Counted from the first letter of the stretch, positions 32,813-39,964 are shown. The stretch: 64,000 bases of DNA from an uncultured Bacillota bacterium (GCA_963804645.1 CAWDRG010000009.1:1056001-1120000); one strand, 5' to 3'. Notes: generated by a model not told the origin, from the letters alone. Made by a program: numbers and translations.

Positions 32813-33748
32813 ATGGTGACTTCGGCCGGTGAGGGTGTGACCCTGAAGCGCCTCCTCGTCCCCCTGGACGGGTCGCGGCTCGCCGAGTCCGTGATCCCGA
32901 TCGTGGTGTCCCTGGCCGCGCACCTCGAAGCCCGCGTCACGCTGCTGTACGTCATGGAACGGCAGACGCCCGCCACGGTGCACGGTGACCGTCACTTGCA
33001 CGGCACCGCGGAGGCCGACGCGTACCTCACGGACCTGTCCGCGCGGATGCTCGCGGCGGGCGTCGTGGCCGACCGCCACGTGCACCCGAACCAAGAAGGC
33101 GACGTCGCCAAGAGCATCGTGGACCACGCCGGCGATCTCGCGGCGGACTTGGTCATTCTCGCCACGCACGGCGGGGGAGGGGCGCGCCGCGTGCTGTTCG
33201 GCAGCGTCGCGCAGCAGGTCCTCCGACGCGGCACGCGGCCGGTGCTGCTCATCCGTCCGCCCGAGACGGCGCCGTCCGCGTCGGCCGCGCCGTTTGACGT
33301 GCGCCGGCTGCTGGTGCCGCTCGACGGGCAGCCCCCCGCGGAAGCCGCGATGCCGTTCGCGGCGACCATCTCCGCGGCGTACGGGGCGGAGGTACTGCTG
33401 GTCCGCGTGGTCCCGACGCTCGCCACCCTCGGCGGCGACCGGGTGAGCGCGGCCCGCCTGACGCCGACCGCGGCCGCGGCGTCGCTGGACTTGGAAGAGG
33501 AAGAGGCGCGCCACTACACCGACACGATGGTGCGCCGGTGGGAGGCGGACCGGCGCCGGGTCACCGCGACGGTCATGCGGGGCGATCCCGCGCAGATCCT
33601 GCTCGACGTCGCCGCGCAGGCGCCGGTCGACATGGTCGTGATGGCCAGCCACGGCCGCGCCGGCCTCGACGCCGTGTTCTCCGGGAGCGTCGCGTCGCGG
33701 CTCGCCGGACGGATCCAGGCGCCGCTGCTGCTCGTCCGGGCGCCGTGA
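32813..33748 (+). CDS. Universal stress protein with two Usp domains
   Basis: Two LLVPLDG starts; ATHG..G..FGSVA and ASHGR.G..SGSVA. Confidence 0.92.
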   Translation: MVTSAGEGVTLKRLLVPLDGSRLAESVIPIVVSLAAHLEARVTLLYVMERQTPATVHGDRHLHGTAEADAYLTDLSARMLAAGVVADRHVHPNQEGDVAKSIVDHAGDLAADLVILATHGGGGARRVLFGSVAQQVLRRGTRPVLLIRPPETAPSASAAPFDVRRLLVPLDGQPPAEAAMPFAATISAAYGAEVLLVRVVPTLATLGGDRVSAARLTPTAAAASLDLEEEEARHYTDTMVRRWEADRRRVTATVMRGDPAQILLDVAAQAPVDMVVMASHGRAGLDAVFSGSVASRLAGRIQAPLLLVRAP

Positions 33749-33782
33749 CCGGCCGGCGCGCGTCCCGCGGCGCGCCTCCCAT

Positions 33783-33811
33783 TTGACACGGTAGAGCGCC
33801 GGGGCTATACT
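33783..33811 (+). promoter_or_regulatory. Near-consensus sigma70 promoter upstream of the prkA operon
   Basis: TTGACA-N17-TATACT. Confidence 0.8.
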
Positions 33812-33816
33812 CGTTC

Positions 33817-34000
33817 AAAAGTTCACACCGTGACGTCCGGAACGCACGAGACACGGTCGCATCAGGGAGCCGATCCAGAAGAGACGCAGCAGCCGACGAC
33901 GGAGCGACGCTGGACCACGATCGTGGTACGGGCCGGACGAGCCACGAAGCTCAGCCGGGGAGCGCCAGACGCTCCCGCGCTGGGCTTCTGCGTTTTGTGT
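33817..34000 (+). ncRNA. Candidate structured leader RNA (riboswitch/attenuator) or sRNA; family not recognised
   Basis: Starts just after the promoter, contains several stems, and ends in hairpin 33946-33988 plus a T-rich tail; 33881-33894 is complementary to 33983-33996. Confidence 0.5.
33946..33996 (+). terminator. Intrinsic terminator-like hairpin inside the prkA leader
   Basis: GAAGCTCAGC..GGGAGCG-ccaga-CGCTCCC..GCTGGGCTTC followed by TGCGTTTT. Confidence 0.6.
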
Positions 34001-34125
34001 AACGGCAGCCGACCGGTGGGAACGGCGCCGGAGTTCGGCACGTAGGTTCTGGGGTAGAACAGGAGCGCGGGCCGGATCGCGCCGCCGGAGTGCGGACGAT
34101 GAAGCCGCGGGGGCGAGTGAGCGGG

Positions 34126-35790
34126 ATGAGCGAAATCACGACGGTCGAAACTTACGTGGCGGCAAGCCGGCAGAACCCGCGTTTGGCCCGCACCACGCTG
34201 CACTACATCGCGGACATGATCGACTACTTCGGCAAGGCGCGCGTGTTCGAAGGCATCTATGGCATGGACCGGCAGCTGGACGACATCGTGGACTTCTTCC
34301 GCGGGTACGCGATGAGCATGGAGCGCCGGCTCCTGCTCCTCGTGGGGCCGCAGGGGTCCGGCAAGTCGATGACGGTCGACAAGCTGAAGCGGCGGCTCGA
34401 GGAGTACTCGCACAAGCCCGACGGTATCCTGTACGCGGTCGCCGGATGCCCGTTTCACCAGCACCCGTTCGATCTGATCCCGCTGGACGCGCGCGAGGCC
34501 GAGGGCATCTGGTGGCACGAGGAAGCCGTGCCGTGTCCGGTCTGCGAGCGGGCGGTGGCCGCGCGCGGCGACTGGCGGACCGTGTCGGTGCGGCCGCTCC
34601 TGATCTCGGCCCGCGACAAGGTCGGGGTCGCGAAGCACACGCCGACCGACCTGCGCCGGGAAGACATCACCAACTTCGTCGGCAACATCAACTTCGCGAT
34701 GCTGAAGGAGCGCGGCTCGACCTATGATCCCGACGCGTACGATTTCGAGGGCAAGGTCATCTGGGCGAACCGCGGGATCCTGGATTGGACCGAGGTGTTC
34801 AAGAGCCGCCGGCAGCTGCTGTCGCTTCTGCTGGAGCTGATCCAGTCGAAGCGCATCGACCTGGCGAACTTCCCGACCGTCCACGTCGACGAGGTCGTGG
34901 TCGGGCACACGAACTATCCCGAGTACAACGTGTTCCTGTCCGAGGACATCATGGAGCCGCTCCGCGGGCGGATCCACAAAGTGGACTTCCCGTATAATGT
35001 GGACATCGGCGGCGAGATGCGGATTTATCGGGGACTCGTCGAGCGCGCGAACCGCGCCCGCGGGGAGCAGAAGCACGTCCCCGGGGACGTGTACGAGCTC
35101 GCGGCGACTTATGCGATCAAGACGCGGCAGGAGTCCGAGGGACTCCGCGGCCTGTCTCCGCGGTTCTTCGAGGACGCGTTCTCGCTGGCGTACACGCGCG
35201 CCAACCGGTGCATCGACCTCGAGGTGATCACGGACGCGATCGAGCAGACGTTCGCGCACCAGTCGATCAAGGACCTCAACCTCAAGGACCTGCTCAAGCT
35301 GTTCGAGGAGACGAAGGTTGAGTTCATCCACAAGAAGGTCGACGTGATCGTCGAGGAGATCGTGCCGAGCCACTTCTACGATTACGGCCAGAATCTCTAC
35401 CTGAACTACCTCGACGTCGCGGCGCGCAGCGTGCTGGGCGAGGCGATGTCGGACGGCGACAAGGAGCTGCTGGACGACATCGAGGGCGTCCTGGTGCAGA
35501 AGCGGCAGATCAGCCGGCAGGGGCGAATCGCGTTCGAGAACGTCCTGCTGGAACGCCGCGACGAGCTGCGGCGCATGAGCTACCGCGACAACGAGCATCT
35601 CGCCGGCGCGATCAACGAGATCGTGTTTAACAAGATCAAGAACTGCCTGCGGTTGTACGACAAGACCGAGGAGATGGACGCGAAGAGCCGGGACCTGCTC
35701 GACGTGCTGCAGCGCAGCGCGATCGAGGAGCACGGCTACTGCGCGTCGTGCGCCAGCGCGCTGTTCAAGGTCATCGGCCGGAGCTTTTAG
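34126..35790 (+). CDS. prkA: PrkA/YeaG-family AAA+ serine protein kinase
   Basis: LLLLVGPQGSGKS, YDPDAYDFEG...ANRGIL..EVFK, DEVVVGHTNYPEY, GLSPRF, C-terminal HGYC..CA; followed by yeaH and spoVR homologs. Confidence 0.88.
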   Translation: MSEITTVETYVAASRQNPRLARTTLHYIADMIDYFGKARVFEGIYGMDRQLDDIVDFFRGYAMSMERRLLLLVGPQGSGKSMTVDKLKRRLEEYSHKPDGILYAVAGCPFHQHPFDLIPLDAREAEGIWWHEEAVPCPVCERAVAARGDWRTVSVRPLLISARDKVGVAKHTPTDLRREDITNFVGNINFAMLKERGSTYDPDAYDFEGKVIWANRGILDWTEVFKSRRQLLSLLLELIQSKRIDLANFPTVHVDEVVVGHTNYPEYNVFLSEDIMEPLRGRIHKVDFPYNVDIGGEMRIYRGLVERANRARGEQKHVPGDVYELAATYAIKTRQESEGLRGLSPRFFEDAFSLAYTRANRCIDLEVITDAIEQTFAHQSIKDLNLKDLLKLFEETKVEFIHKKVDVIVEEIVPSHFYDYGQNLYLNYLDVAARSVLGEAMSDGDKELLDDIEGVLVQKRQISRQGRIAFENVLLERRDELRRMSYRDNEHLAGAINEIVFNKIKNCLRLYDKTEEMDAKSRDLLDVLQRSAIEEHGYCASCASALFKVIGRSF

Positions 35791-35815: not shown

Positions 35816-36955
35816 ATGAAAATACACCGCGGGCGGATCGCCCAGTACAAGCACGACCAGATGCTGCGGGATTACCTCAAGCAGAACCTCAACGAGCTGA
35901 TCCAGCAGAAGGAACTGATCGTCGACGGCCGGGTGAAGACGCAGATCGCCACCCTGGATCTGCCGACGCTCAAGTTCGGCGAGGAGTCGCAGTTTCTCGC
36001 CCAGGGCGGCGGGAGCGGGGCCGGCGCGGGCGGGGGCGCGGCGGGCGCCGGCGGCGAGCAGGTCCAAGCGCTCGGCGGCCTTCTCGGCGGCGATCACCAC
36101 GGCAAGGAGCTGACGGTCGAGCTGGATTTCGATGAATTCGTCCGGCTCGCGCAGGAGGTGCTGCTGGACGAGCTGCGGCTGCCGACGTTTCGCGAGCCGG
36201 CCCGCGCCGGGGAAGTGGAAAGTCAGGATACCTCGGAGCTCGACGACCTGGAGCGCGTCGGCCTGCGCGCGGATCTCAACCTTGAGGAGACGATGACGCA
36301 GAGCCTGCTGCGCAACGCGCGCGAGCGCGGCCGTCTCGACTACGACGTGGACGTCCAGCAGGACGCGTGGTACTTCGTCGAGGATCCCGCGACGTTCCAA
36401 AACCACCGGTCGGTCGAGATCTACGTGCTCGACATCTCGGGCTCGATGCGGGGCGAGTACCTCGCCCTCGTGCGCAAGACGATCTTCGTCCTCTGGCACT
36501 ACCTGGAGCGCCGTTATCCCACGAACCTCCGCCGGTACGTCGTGTTCCAGGACGTGGCGGAGGAGAAGACGCGCGACGAGTTCTTCTGCGTCGAGTCGAG
36601 CGGCGGGACCCACATCAGCACCGGGTTTCGCAAGGCGGTCGAGCTGCTCCGCGGCGTGACGGAGCACGACAAGTTCCTGTTCATCTTCACCGACGGGGAG
36701 ACAAGCTCGGGCGATTTCGACCTCGCGAAGCGCACGTACGAGGAGGCGCTCGAGGCGTTCGACGTGGTGACCTACGGCCACGTCAACCCCGGCGGCCGGG
36801 GCATCGGCGGGTTCAGCGAGCACGCGCAGGAAGGCGTGAAGACACGCGCCAATGCGGTGTTTGCGAATCTCGTGGATCTGGAGACGATTCGGACCGCGAT
36901 GCGGCAGTTTCTCGAGTTTTTCGACACACGGAAGACCGCCGCGTCGCCGCGTTGA
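35816..36955 (+). CDS. YeaH/YhbH (DUF444) family protein with vWA-like domain
   Basis: Gly-rich linker then ELTVEL; DISGSM MIDAS, ESSGGTHIS, FTDGE; canonical position after prkA. Confidence 0.85.
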   Translation: MKIHRGRIAQYKHDQMLRDYLKQNLNELIQQKELIVDGRVKTQIATLDLPTLKFGEESQFLAQGGGSGAGAGGGAAGAGGEQVQALGGLLGGDHHGKELTVELDFDEFVRLAQEVLLDELRLPTFREPARAGEVESQDTSELDDLERVGLRADLNLEETMTQSLLRNARERGRLDYDVDVQQDAWYFVEDPATFQNHRSVEIYVLDISGSMRGEYLALVRKTIFVLWHYLERRYPTNLRRYVVFQDVAEEKTRDEFFCVESSGGTHISTGFRKAVELLRGVTEHDKFLFIFTDGETSSGDFDLAKRTYEEALEAFDVVTYGHVNPGGRGIGGFSEHAQEGVKTRANAVFANLVDLETIRTAMRQFLEFFDTRKTAASPR

Positions 36956-36971
36956 TCGGAGGGCCGGGACG

Positions 36972-38132
36972 ATGATGCAGACCGAGTACGACCAGGTCAT
37001 CTCGCGGATCGAGGGCCTGGCGCGCGACCGCGGGCTCGCGTTCGACCCGGTGATCTTCCGGATGACCGACAGCGACGAGATCGCCGAGGTCGCCAGCATG
37101 GGGCTGCCCAACCGCTTCATCCACTGGTACTGGGGCGGCACGTACAAGGAGCTGGTGACGCAGCAGAGCAAGGAAGTATTCACGATTCTCGAGCTGGTGC
37201 TGAACACCGCGCCCTCGCACGCGTTCCTGCGCAGCACGAATACGTACCTGCAAAACGTGCTCGTGATCGCCCACGTGTTCGGCCACGCCGATTTTTTCGC
37301 GAACAACCACTGGTACCGCAAGTCCAACAAGAACATGCTGAACGCGACCGAGCAGCACGCGCGTCTCATCCGGTCGTACGAGGCGCAGTACGGGCAGGAG
37401 CGCATCGAAAAGCTGCTCGACGCGCTGCTGACCGTGGCGACCTCCGTGAACACCTTCGAGCGGAGCCAGCCGGAGCGGCGGAAGCGCCTGATCTACTACC
37501 TCGAGGAGCGGGCGCCGCTCGAGGAGTTCGAGCGCGTGCTGCTGCAGGCGATCCGCGAGGAGGCCGAGTACTTCGACCTAATCCAGCGGACCCACCTGAT
37601 CAACGAGGGATGGGCGACGTTCATCGAGGCCGAGCTGCTGACGCGCCTCTTGACCGCGCGGGAGTGGGCGAGCCTGTCCGTGCAGCTGTGCAATCGGCCG
37701 GCGCCCTACACGATCGGCTATACGCTGTTCAAGCACCTTCGCGACCGGGAGGGGTTTGCGCGCGCGCTCGAGGTCCGGCGGTTTTACGAGGATGTCAGCC
37801 TCATCGACGTCGCGCTGACCGAGGACCTCGTGCGGCGCCTCGACATCTTCGTGTACGATCCGAAGGAGAAGCAGAAGAGCTACGACCTGCAGAAAGTGAA
37901 GGACATGCTGATCACGCAGAAGCTCTACAAGGGCGAACCGCGGGTCGAGGTGGATCCGGCGTCCCAGGGCCGCGATCTCCTGCTCGCGCACATGGACGAG
38001 GACCGCAAGATCGAGTCCAAGCGCATCGGGCTGTTTCTCAAGTCCGTGTACGCGCTCTGGCGCAACCCCGTGAAGCTCCGCGCGAACGGCAAGGTGTATA
38101 CGTACGATCGGCGGGGGCTGTCGTCGACGTAG
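36972..38132 (+). CDS. spoVR: SpoVR/YcgB family protein
   Basis: GLPNRFIHWYWG, ELVLNT.P, LVIAHVFGHADFF.NN, INEGWATF, PYTIG. Confidence 0.9.
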   Translation: MMQTEYDQVISRIEGLARDRGLAFDPVIFRMTDSDEIAEVASMGLPNRFIHWYWGGTYKELVTQQSKEVFTILELVLNTAPSHAFLRSTNTYLQNVLVIAHVFGHADFFANNHWYRKSNKNMLNATEQHARLIRSYEAQYGQERIEKLLDALLTVATSVNTFERSQPERRKRLIYYLEERAPLEEFERVLLQAIREEAEYFDLIQRTHLINEGWATFIEAELLTRLLTAREWASLSVQLCNRPAPYTIGYTLFKHLRDREGFARALEVRRFYEDVSLIDVALTEDLVRRLDIFVYDPKEKQKSYDLQKVKDMLITQKLYKGEPRVEVDPASQGRDLLLAHMDEDRKIESKRIGLFLKSVYALWRNPVKLRANGKVYTYDRRGLSST

Positions 38133-38177: not shown

Positions 38178-38684
38178 GTGGATGTTCTTGAGGTGAAGCG
38201 CACCCTCCACGGTGAGGAGCGGACGTACGCGTGCCGGGCGGCGGAGTGCTCCCCGGAGCGTGCGGTCCTGCTGTACACGCTGGCGCGCGACGGCCGGGTC
38301 GGCGGGCTGACGCTTCCCGCCGGGACGCTGACCGTTGCCTACTACTGGGCGGCGCGCCCCTACAACGTCTACCATTGGATCGGTCCCGACCGGAATACGC
38401 TCGGATACTACTTTAACCTCAGCGGCCCCGCGCGTATCGCGGGCGACCGGCTCGAGTGGGAAGACCTGGAAGTGGATATCCTGGTGCTCCCTGATGGGCG
38501 GCACGAAGTGCTCGACGAGGACCGGGTGCCGGCCGCCGCGGCGGCGCGGCTGCCCGAGATCGCGGCCGCCCGCGACGCGGTGCTGCGCGATTACCCGGAC
38601 GTTACCCGCGGCGTCGAGGCCGCGTCGCGCGCGCTTCTGGCGCGCGACCCGACGCTGCTCGCCGGGCCCCCGGCGGGCGCCTGA
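38178..38684 (+). CDS. DUF402-like protein
   Basis: YNVYHW...GYYFNL...WEDLEVDILVLPDG...LDED. Confidence 0.75.
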   Translation: MDVLEVKRTLHGEERTYACRAAECSPERAVLLYTLARDGRVGGLTLPAGTLTVAYYWAARPYNVYHWIGPDRNTLGYYFNLSGPARIAGDRLEWEDLEVDILVLPDGRHEVLDEDRVPAAAAARLPEIAAARDAVLRDYPDVTRGVEAASRALLARDPTLLAGPPAGA

Positions 38685-39427
38685 TGCCGCCGCGCGGCCG
38701 CGTCGCCGTGGTCACCGGGTCGAGCCGCGGCATCGGGCGCGCGATCGCGCAGGCGTTCGCGCGCGACGGCTGCGCGCTCGTCGTGAACGCCGCCCGGTCC
38801 GTCGCGGAGGCGGAGGCGGTGGCGGAGGCGATTACGGCCGGCGGCGGCCGTGCGGTCGCGGTGCAGGCCGATGTCGGCGATCCGGCGCAGGCGCAGGAAT
38901 TGATCGCGCGGGCCCTCGAGGAGTACGGGCGCGTCGACGTCCTCGTCAACAACGCCGGGATCGTGGACCGCTCGGATCTGTGGCAGATCGACGAGGCCGG
39001 CTGGGCCGCGATGATGGCGGTGCACGTCACGGGGCCGTTTTTCGCGAGCCGGGCGGCCGCCGAGGCGATGCGCGGGCAGGGAGGCGGCGCGATCATCAAC
39101 ATCGCGTCGATGCGGGGGATCGAGCCGGGGTCGGGGCCGCTGCACTACAACGTCAGCAAGGCGGCGGTGCTGATGCTCACGAAGTGTCTCGCGCGCGATC
39201 TCGCCCCGCACGTGCGGGTGAACGCGATCGCGCCGGGGTACACGGAGACCGGCTTCCACGCCGGCCGGACGATCGCGGAACGCGAGCAGATCAGTGCGAG
39301 GATTCCGCTCGGGCGGTTCGGGCGCCCCGAGGAGGTCGCGCGCGCCGCAGTGTTTCTCGCCTCCGACGGCGCCGCGTATATGACGGGGCACACGCTGGTG
39401 CTCTCGGGCGGCGTGGTGATGGCGTAG
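38684..39427 (+). CDS. SDR-family NAD(P)-dependent oxidoreductase (FabG-like)
   Basis: TGSSRGIG, NNAG, YNVSK, VNAIAPG. Confidence 0.93.
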   Translation: MPPRGRVAVVTGSSRGIGRAIAQAFARDGCALVVNAARSVAEAEAVAEAITAGGGRAVAVQADVGDPAQAQELIARALEEYGRVDVLVNNAGIVDRSDLWQIDEAGWAAMMAVHVTGPFFASRAAAEAMRGQGGGAIINIASMRGIEPGSGPLHYNVSKAAVLMLTKCLARDLAPHVRVNAIAPGYTETGFHAGRTIAEREQISARIPLGRFGRPEEVARAAVFLASDGAAYMTGHTLVLSGGVVMA

Positions 39428-39445
39428 GCGGGCCGCCGTCCCGGA

Positions 39446-39964
39446 CTACGATTCCTCGAGCTTGCTGTCCTTCCGGGGAGTGTCGCCGGCCTGCGTCTGG
39501 CCGAAGTCCGCGGGCCGCACCTGGTCGATAAACTTCTTGAACTCCTCGACCTCGTGCTCGTCGAACGCCTTCTTGAGCGGGATCGCCGCGGCCGCGACCT
39601 TGTCCTCGACGAAGATCGGCGCCTCCGCCCGCAGCGCGAGGGCGATCGCGTCGCTCGGGCGCGAGTCGACGATCACCTCGGCGCTTTTGGTCCGCAGGTG
39701 GATTTCCGCAAAGTACGTGCCGTTCTGGAGGTCCGTGACGACGATCCGGCTGACGCTGACCGTCAGGTGCGTCAGCATCGTGCGCATCAGATCGTGGGTC
39801 ATCGGGCGCGGCATCTTCTGCCCGCGCAGCTCGAGCGCGATCGACTGCGCCTCGCTCTGGCCGATCCAGATCGGCAGCGCCAGCGACTCCGCTTGATCGA
39901 CGAGCAGGACCACCGGGTTCATCTGCTGGTCCATCGCCACGGTGCGCACTTTCACCGAGATCAT
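39446..39964 (-). CDS. Bifunctional nuclease family protein (DUF151)
   Basis: LPIWIGQSEA.SI, RPMTHDL, DSRPSDAIALALR. Confidence 0.92.
   Translation of the reverse strand: MISVKVRTVAMDQQMNPVVLLVDQAESLALPIWIGQSEAQSIALELRGQKMPRPMTHDLMRTMLTHLTVSVSRIVVTDLQNGTYFAEIHLRTKSAEVIVDSRPSDAIALALRAEAPIFVEDKVAAAAIPLKKAFDEHEVEEFKKFIDQVRPADFGQTQAGDTPRKDSKLEES

Follow-up and report, generated by a model that had tools for sequence, protein, structure and literature searches.

A conserved leader RNA with an intrinsic terminator upstream of prkA in the candidate phylum CSP1-3/Sysuimicrobiota

The window analysed here, a 64,000-nt stretch of DNA from an uncultured Bacillota bacterium (genome of 5.3 Mb, 96.8% complete), carries on its plus strand an operon of three genes, prkA (yeaG), yeaH (yhbH) and spoVR (ycgB), and ahead of prkA a leader region for which the first-pass annotation had proposed an unrecognised riboswitch or attenuator. 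The products of these genes make up the PrkA/YeaG-YeaH-SpoVR module, a widespread starvation and dormancy module with poorly understood inputs, whose genes are controlled by sigmaS and NtrC in E. coli and by sigmaE in B. subtilis. Our analysis confirmed that the leader is a real, conserved RNA element tied to prkA and absent from Rfam. It extends from an upstream promoter (P1) to an intrinsic terminator, and a second promoter motif (P2) of the extracytoplasmic function (ECF) sigma factor type lies between that terminator and prkA; upstream of P1, a gene for a tandem-Usp protein ends at 33748. The features are collected in Table 1, with coordinates counted from the first letter of the window.

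Table 1. Features of the prkA locus and of its leader RNA
Feature	Position	Strand	Remarks
P1, sigma-70/sigmaA-type promoter	33783..33811	+	TTGACA-N17-TATACT; -35 element 33783-33788, -10 element 33806-33811
Terminated leader RNA, about 179 nt	33818..33996	+	5' end predicted 7 nt past the -10 element, 3' end predicted at the T-run
P0, 5' strand GUUCAC	33821..33826	+	within AAAGUUC, the most conserved part of the RNA 5' end
Lineage-specific long-range helix	33834..33840	+	CGUCCGG with CCGGACG at 33933-33939; genus columns 17-23 with 120-126
Proposed antiterminator strand GAGACGCAGCAGCC	33881..33894	+	pairs with GGCTTCTGCGTTTT at 33983-33996, 13 of 14 positions including G-U
Conserved core GACGACGGAGCGACGCUGGACCACGAUCGUGG	33895..33926	+	includes a small hairpin/palindrome, ACC...GGU
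P0, 3' strand ACGAGC	33937..33942	+	just upstream of the terminator
Intrinsic terminator	33941..33996	+	extended stem 33941-33994, core stem 33946-33988, T-run 33993-33996
P2, ECF-sigma-like promoter motif	34020..34046	+	GGAAC-N17-CGTAG; between terminator and prkA
prkA (yeaG-type AAA+/PrkA protein)	34126..35790	+	554 amino acids from the ATG; AAA_PrkA 5.5e-55, PrkA C-terminal domain 2e-16
yeaH/yhbH (DUF444)	35816..36955	+	DUF444 1.1e-26
spoVR/ycgB	36852..38132	+	SpoVR 1e-58; open reading frame as listed

Relatives of the locus were gathered at three levels. Within the genus, blastn found the leader in all six other genomes, each time directly upstream of prkA, which together with the window gives seven copies. 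Within the family, a covariance model built from this one genus was run over 23 genomes and found a full-length single copy in six genomes of other genera, again upstream of prkA in six of six; ten family genomes had no match to this single-genus model, and one extra weak match away from prkA is probably false. For the phylum, scanning species genomes for prkA yielded 42 loci, 38 of them with the prkA 5' end, and a scan of metagenome contigs yielded 40 further loci, of which 38 were examined. The loci of the prkA scan come from ANGP1, CSP1-3, Ca. Sysuimicrobium, Ca. Thermofontivivens and Ca. Calidihabitans, that is, from the candidate phylum CSP1-3/Sysuimicrobiota, and throughout the phylum loci the leader is adjacent to prkA and in the same orientation. 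The leaders, the window's included, number 72 (64 unique). Excision of the terminated RNAs by a tail pattern gave 52 unique RNAs and nine exact duplicates and left 11 leaders without a pattern match; in most of these 11 a hairpin with a T-run could be seen by eye, the exceptions being L059, L123, L124 and L066 (single loci are cited by such numbers). Structures were assessed on 13 family members, with 500 shuffles and slid controls, and on a 36-sequence MAFFT alignment made without fitting to a structure; by the tool's own caution, related sequences that have no structure may outscore the shuffle control for covariation.

P1, which the first-pass annotation had placed about 310 nt before the prkA ATG, is present in the window as the sole site returned by a promoter scan, matching 11 of 12 consensus positions where shuffles gave a mean of 0.1 sites. 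Its exact sequence, with the 17-nt spacer, occurs at only four sites in the whole genome, and the looser TTGACA-N16-18-TATA[AC]T at 23, of which at least two, judged by eye, precede apparent tRNA genes. All seven genus copies keep TTGACA-N17-TATACT, and in all seven the distance from TTGACA to the TGTAACG that follows the hairpin is fixed at 213-216 nt, whereas anything between 128 and 289 nt separates TGTAACG from the ATG. Across the phylum, 35 of 38 genome loci have TTGAC[N]-N16-18-TA[TC]A[CA]T ahead of prkA, at 53-550 nt from the ATG, and the promoter is also there in 36 of 38 metagenome loci (71 of 76 overall). The bases after the -10 element, CGGCTC and then AAAGTTC (33812-33824 and homologues), are better conserved than most of the RNA, and A residues are probably the first of the P1 transcript; the stringent response of B. 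subtilis favours promoters that initiate with A, which would suit a starvation operon. The bottom strand at AAAGTTC was also considered for a divergent ECF promoter, an idea rejected by eye for want of a -10 element.

At the other end of the leader, the strong hairpin with a T-rich tail that had been described there is equally well founded. Folded over 33940-34000 it reaches -35.0 kcal/mol, against -23.4 +/- 2.8 kcal/mol for shuffles (z = -4.1; none of 200 as stable), and it runs into UGCGUUUU, so that a GC-rich hairpin and a U-run are found together. A simple pattern scan for terminators did not list this hairpin, a point against it that is explained by the internal loops of the stem. Among the 13 family members 87.8% of the alignment cells are paired (slid controls, 35-61%), six pairs are changed on both sides and the covariation score was reached by three of 500 shuffles, while RNAalifold on the 36 sequences found six of ten terminator pairs to be compensatory. 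In 29 of 31 leaders the routine delimited a homologous hairpin with a T-run behind it, the energies lying between -22.7 and -34.8 kcal/mol; it did not delimit one in L051 and L063. This is a conserved and covarying intrinsic terminator, and termination at it is predicted from these features. The possibility that it serves the upstream usp gene was rejected, as P1 sits between usp and the hairpin; nor is it a genome-wide repeat, the pattern CCC[AG]G..C[TC]GGG..TTTT occurring 26 times against 25 for the reversed control. In L075, a leader of 284 nt from the P1 -35 element to just past the ATG, two tandem terminator-type hairpins stand about 90 nt apart and may represent a duplication of the attenuator.

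Between P1 and the T-run, the RNA would mostly measure 160-235 nt across the leaders, with about 85-110 nt in some lineages (L063, L082). It is most probably untranslated: a candidate leader peptide of 71 amino acids (open reading frame 33830-34045) had no Pfam match and is broken by indels of 1-2 nt within the genus, and such indels of lengths other than multiples of three argue against a coding leader. A result that goes against the first-pass observation is the folding of the 313-nt leader taken whole, which shows no unusual stability (z = -1.41, with 7 of 100 shuffles equally good). The claim that it could not be matched to a known family stands. Rfam gave no match at the gathering score over the 64-kb window; at E <= 10 on 33600-34300 the only match was to the archaeal small nucleolar RNA model sR16, which is noise (18.7 bits, the cut-off being 70); and on the loci of 12 relatives the leaders had no match at E <= 0.1. 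The loose resemblance to the glutamine-II (Downstream-peptide) motif that had been suggested is thereby not borne out. A prkA/yeaG leader RNA was likewise not described in the top-ranked matches of a literature search. The element is a new family of a known kind, seen so far in a single candidate phylum.

An RNA of about 180 nt behind a very strong promoter and ahead of a stationary-phase operon, with a 5' end that pairs near its 3' part, calls to mind 6S RNA, which binds RNA polymerase or a sigma factor and is encoded in E. coli by ssrS upstream of ygfA. In favour of this, too, the Rfam 6S model finds nothing anywhere in this genome at E <= 1. We nevertheless consider a 6S-like RNA very improbable, because the model did not match the leader either, because the length falls so far in L063 and L082, and because the predicted fold is a closed multi-branch domain of about 125 nt plus a separate terminator hairpin of 45-55 nt instead of a rod with a central bubble; known 6S RNAs are also longer than the leader RNA minus its terminator. 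The first-pass annotation had itself set against a switch the case of a housekeeping RNA such as 6S with prkA transcribed from a promoter of its own; a candidate for the latter is present in P2, and a 6S match was not found. Any 6S RNA that this phylum may have goes unrecognised by the Rfam model.

The closed domain just mentioned rests on a helix, P0, that would join the very 5' end of the RNA to the bases directly ahead of the terminator. In the alignment its strands (columns 6-11 with 200-205) are paired in 75.9% of the cells, and one pair, 11/200, occurs as CG in 13 sequences, UA in eight, AU in five and UG in three. Together with a 3-bp hairpin in the conserved core, P0 reaches 76.4% paired against 71.6% in shuffles and a covariation score of 0.271 against 0.192, none of 500 shuffles being as high in either respect, and slid controls give 33-53%. 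In the window itself four of the six P0 pairs form (33821-33824 with 33939-33942). Matching the 5'-terminal 10 nt of the RNAs against the 17 nt ahead of and inside the terminator base gave a mean helix of 4.47, against 3.45 for shuffles. We regard the support for P0 as good, though not conclusive.

Within the genus P0 is supplemented by the long-range helix of CGTCCGG and CCGGACG (33834-33840 and 33933-33939), which the first-pass annotation had pointed out, and in which three pairs are changed on both sides; it is not traceable beyond the genus. The second pairing that it listed, ACCGTG at 33827-33832 with CACGGT at 33852-33857, is also in place, as is the 14-bp palindrome ACCACGATCGTGGT at 33914-33927. 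The latter overlaps the conserved core, where the 36-sequence alignment has the invariant or near-invariant positions of the 5' domain (ACG, G, C, CG, C, UG) and where the small hairpin, helix 2, is paired in 77.5% of the cells. Wide conservation of the kind seen in aptamers was not found for the core, which is kept only within the family-level group; in the other groups of the phylum a GGAGCG box, judged by eye, is its sole recognisable part.

The core holds an inverted repeat, RCCA-N7-8-UGGY, and the covariation seen there could equally be that of a DNA palindrome or of an RNA hairpin. One could suppose that the leader has no regulated RNA function, being a constitutive insulator or terminator, and that the conserved blocks are DNA operators, such as the palindrome CCACGATCGTGG, for the control of P1 and P2; that no switch structure was found, whether by RNAalifold or in a search for partners of the terminator's 5' arm, would agree with this. 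What such operators do not explain is P0, which joins sites about 115 nt apart and covaries, and the promoter-terminator distance held constant in the genus also argues against them. We judge this explanation to be rather improbable.

A switch in the strict sense would need two exclusive folds, and here the first-pass annotation had been specific: the strand at 33881-33894 was to pair with the 3' arm and tail of the terminator, with the alternative folds excluding each other. That pairing does exist in the window, and within the genus one compensatory change was found by hand (ACGCAG/CUGCGU versus ACACGG/CUGUGU). Beyond the genus, however, the exclusion is unsupported: over the 13 family members pairing of the antiterminator amounts to 67.3%, the figure for shuffles being 65.1% (38 of 500 as high), and its covariation score was reached by 105 of 500, even if slid controls are lower (40-53%). 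The covariation expected among relatives is accordingly found for the terminator and P0, and not for the proposed antiterminator.

These data bear directly on the idea of a metabolite riboswitch, in which the 5' domain would be the aptamer and the ligand would choose between the terminator and this antiterminator. Several traits are of that kind: the P0-closed domain abuts the terminator, as in many riboswitches, the core is conserved, and one subgroup has, at a single site, an inserted hairpin of varying length that is absent from L118. Apart from the missing family-wide support, however, the antiterminator would use the 3' arm of the terminator and so have to compete with the adjacent 5' arm, for which no consistent alternative partner was found; from family to family the 5' domain shows little conservation, even though the PrkA proteins are 67-78% identical to that of the window; the element occurs at one gene only; and Rfam, glutamine-II included, recognises nothing in it. 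A classical riboswitch seems quite unlikely to us. Somewhat less so, yet still unlikely, is a phylum-specific switch whose sensor would be the P0-closed domain of about 125 nt, binding a starvation signal (a small molecule or a protein of the operon) and gating transcription into prkA from P1, which ranks among the strongest housekeeping promoters of the genome, with the abundant RNA perhaps also acting in trans, for instance in a hand-over from sigmaA to an ECF sigma factor.

Whether P1 is a promoter of prkA at all is best judged from lineages in which the intervening sequence is short or lost. From the end of the terminator to the ATG there are 30-32 nt in L072, L074 and L079 and 31 nt in L075, and in L063 the T-run lies about 25 nt from the ATG, which leaves no room for another promoter downstream. 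L066, compared with L063 and L075, has cleanly lost leader and terminator and kept P1 together with the ribosome-binding region, and in L059, L123 and L124, where the tail pattern was not found, P1 stands 123-124 nt before the ATG. Because the terminator stands only about 20-35 nt from the ATG in some lineages, and because L066 retained P1 without the leader, these arrangements indicate that P1 belongs to prkA, and they support the view that in some lineages prkA would be reached only through the terminator.

In most leaders, on the other hand, there is P2. A motif GAA[CT]-N16-18-CGT[ACT] is found between terminator and ATG in 41 of the 52 unique leaders, where shuffles predict 1.2 in total, and the 11 without it belong to other groups. 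Its -35 element is fixed 27 nt past the T-run within the genus, and in 13 leaders the motif ends 20-27 nt before the ATG, with room only for a short 5' untranslated region and a ribosome-binding site. The motif fits the ECF promoter type, with a GGAAC-like -35 and a CGT-like -10 element 16-18 nt apart, a consensus that comes from B. subtilis sigmaW/X/M and actinobacterial SigE/H. Genome-wide it is modestly enriched (190 occurrences against 114 in the reversed control). ECF sigma genes are often autoregulated from such a motif; the genome has 18 genes with a sigma70_r2 domain, five of which carry a loose GAA[CT]-N16-18-CGT within 500 nt upstream, none of them CGTAC. A GGGGTAGA(A/T)AC box at 34053-34062 and its homologues follow the P2 -10 element in several subgroups, as judged by eye. 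In all five members of one group (L068, L072, L074, L079, L126) an ECF-like motif is instead found within the leader, ahead of the terminator and about 19 nt past the predicted P1 start.

P2 is one argument for a stand-alone small RNA gene, whose product, highly expressed, would act in trans by base-pairing or protein binding, with prkA transcribed from P2 and the neighbourhood reflecting shared regulation or history. The rarity of the exact P1 sequence, the strong terminator, the constant length of the module against its variable distance from prkA, and a conserved core that could be a seed or binding site would all suit such a gene. Against it stand the lineages in which P1 is the sole visible promoter of prkA although the RNA is lost (L066) or its tail was not found (L059, L123, L124), those in which the terminator lies almost at the ATG (L072, L074, L079), and the group of five in which even the ECF-like motif precedes the terminator. 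An independent gene would also hardly be expected always to stay adjacent to prkA in the same orientation across the phylum, in a single copy per genome and with none elsewhere. We consider a separate small RNA gene, the chief alternative to an attenuator, possible but doubtful; the two are not exclusive, as action in trans is open to a terminated leader too.

The reading that we tentatively prefer, with confidence somewhat short of even, is that of a leader-attenuator placed on an ancestral sigmaA-type promoter of prkA-yeaH-spoVR. P1 would start an RNA near 33818, whose first 125 nt or so would fold into a domain closed by P0, the 5' GUUC pairing with the bases ahead of the terminator, and holding the core. 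The terminator would then stop most transcripts and release an RNA of about 180 nt, and transcription from P1 would reach prkA only upon relief of termination. As no self-contained antiterminator is conserved, such relief would most likely depend on a factor acting in trans, either a protein or a second RNA, with the conserved core as its recognition site. In the lineage of the window, P2, downstream of the terminator, would drive prkA independently and provide leader-independent induction under stress. Conservation, the promoter motifs, the covariation of terminator and P0 and the link to prkA are shown in this scheme, and the transcript ends, termination, its regulation and the regulator are inferred; of the RNA switch first proposed for prkA it keeps the conserved, prkA-linked terminated element and gives up the built-in antiterminator.

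Several observations weigh against a regulated leader of this kind. Support for P0 stops short of being conclusive because related sequences can beat shuffles without having a structure. RNAalifold on the 36 leaders keeps the terminator only and returns no consensus for the 5' domain, which indeed differs greatly between the families of the phylum. When the 3' arm of the terminator was removed, its 5' arm found no conserved distant partner, a mean of 5.4 of its 20 nt pairing upstream, mostly with adjacent bases, and single-sequence folds without the 3' arm gave inconsistent partners; duplex energies of the opening 70 nt with the 32 nt ahead of the terminator did not surpass those of shuffles and were uninformative (mean z = -0.44 over 29 leaders). 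With RNAalifold, duplex energies and the 5'-arm search all negative, no self-contained RNA switch could be defined. The P2 motif, furthermore, is present in every member of the window's own group, and since it lies downstream of the terminator, prkA would here need no read-through and the module upstream could be a separate gene. RNA-library data speak for read-through and for a link of the leader to prkA in cis, within limits. In four libraries of one study, labelled peat metatranscriptomes, there are five short contigs; two of them, both at least 99% identical to the window, bridge the terminator (229 nt, 33837-34065; 199 nt, 33938-34136), the second reaching the start of prkA, while one of 151 nt ends at 34000, where contigs cannot show transcript ends. 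None covers 33600-33836, and they are too few to bear on the start site; depth is low, ends and strand are not given, and carry-over of DNA is possible.

Compared with known systems, the leader-attenuator would find its nearest counterparts in the terminator leaders of Gram-positive operons under protein or tRNA control, for instance trp (TRAP), pyr (PyrR), bgl/sac (LicT/SacY) and the T-box, in which the terminated leader accumulates as a short RNA. The prkA leader resembles these in its constitutive promoter, its structured untranslated leader and its intrinsic terminator before the first gene, and differs from them in having no conserved set of antiterminator and anti-antiterminator and in the extra promoter between terminator and gene. 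ANTAR-type dual-hexaloop motifs were not seen in the leaders by eye, and no formal test for the binding motif of any attenuator was made. With terminator riboswitches, for instance the purine riboswitches, whose helix P1 abuts or overlaps the terminator, it shares a closing helix beside the terminator, a conserved internal core and a variable peripheral hairpin; unlike them, it has a core that is not phylum-wide, a single gene, an alternative pairing without support and no Rfam match. SreA and SreB of Listeria, small RNAs derived from terminated leaders of S-adenosylmethionine riboswitches, offer a further likeness, in that a terminated leader behind a strong promoter could act in trans; here there is no evidence of targets in trans, for which no search was made. 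As to the operon, an alternative-sigma-type promoter directly ahead of prkA, as P2 seems to be, is the usual stress and starvation control of this module elsewhere, whereas the additional consensus housekeeping-type promoter with its terminated leader is not described in the top-ranked literature matches.

What emerges is that, in an uncultivated phylum of soils and hot springs, this module is connected to two promoters, between or around which lies a conserved, terminated and structured RNA, and the ECF-like promoter of prkA's own corrects the riboswitch reading from which the analysis set out. Should the terminator prove conditional, it would offer a concrete entry to what turns the module on; should the RNA act on its own, it would be a new abundant small RNA in a phylum without catalogued regulatory RNAs of such kind.

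Some minor observations may be added. Inspection by eye alone also raised, as mere candidates, a GGA sponge of the Csr/Rsm type, a motif resembling sigma-54 sites in groups B and C, and, past P2, a GGGTA box like that of sigmaB. Downstream of spoVR, on the same strand, follows an open reading frame of 398 amino acids (38335-39531) without a Pfam match. The prkA ATG at 34126 is in frame with the open reading frame 34090-35790 and lies 315 nt past the P1 -10 element; the AAA_PrkA alignment starts at profile position 53, so that PrkA looks shorter at its N-terminus than the Pfam profile. The listed frame of spoVR overlaps yeaH by about 100 nt (36852-36955), and a later codon is therefore probably its true start. 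Finally, in L048 a group II intron (Rfam domain V/VI model, 40 bits, E = 1.8e-4) lies at 1024-1184 of the locus, directly upstream of the P1 of prkA.

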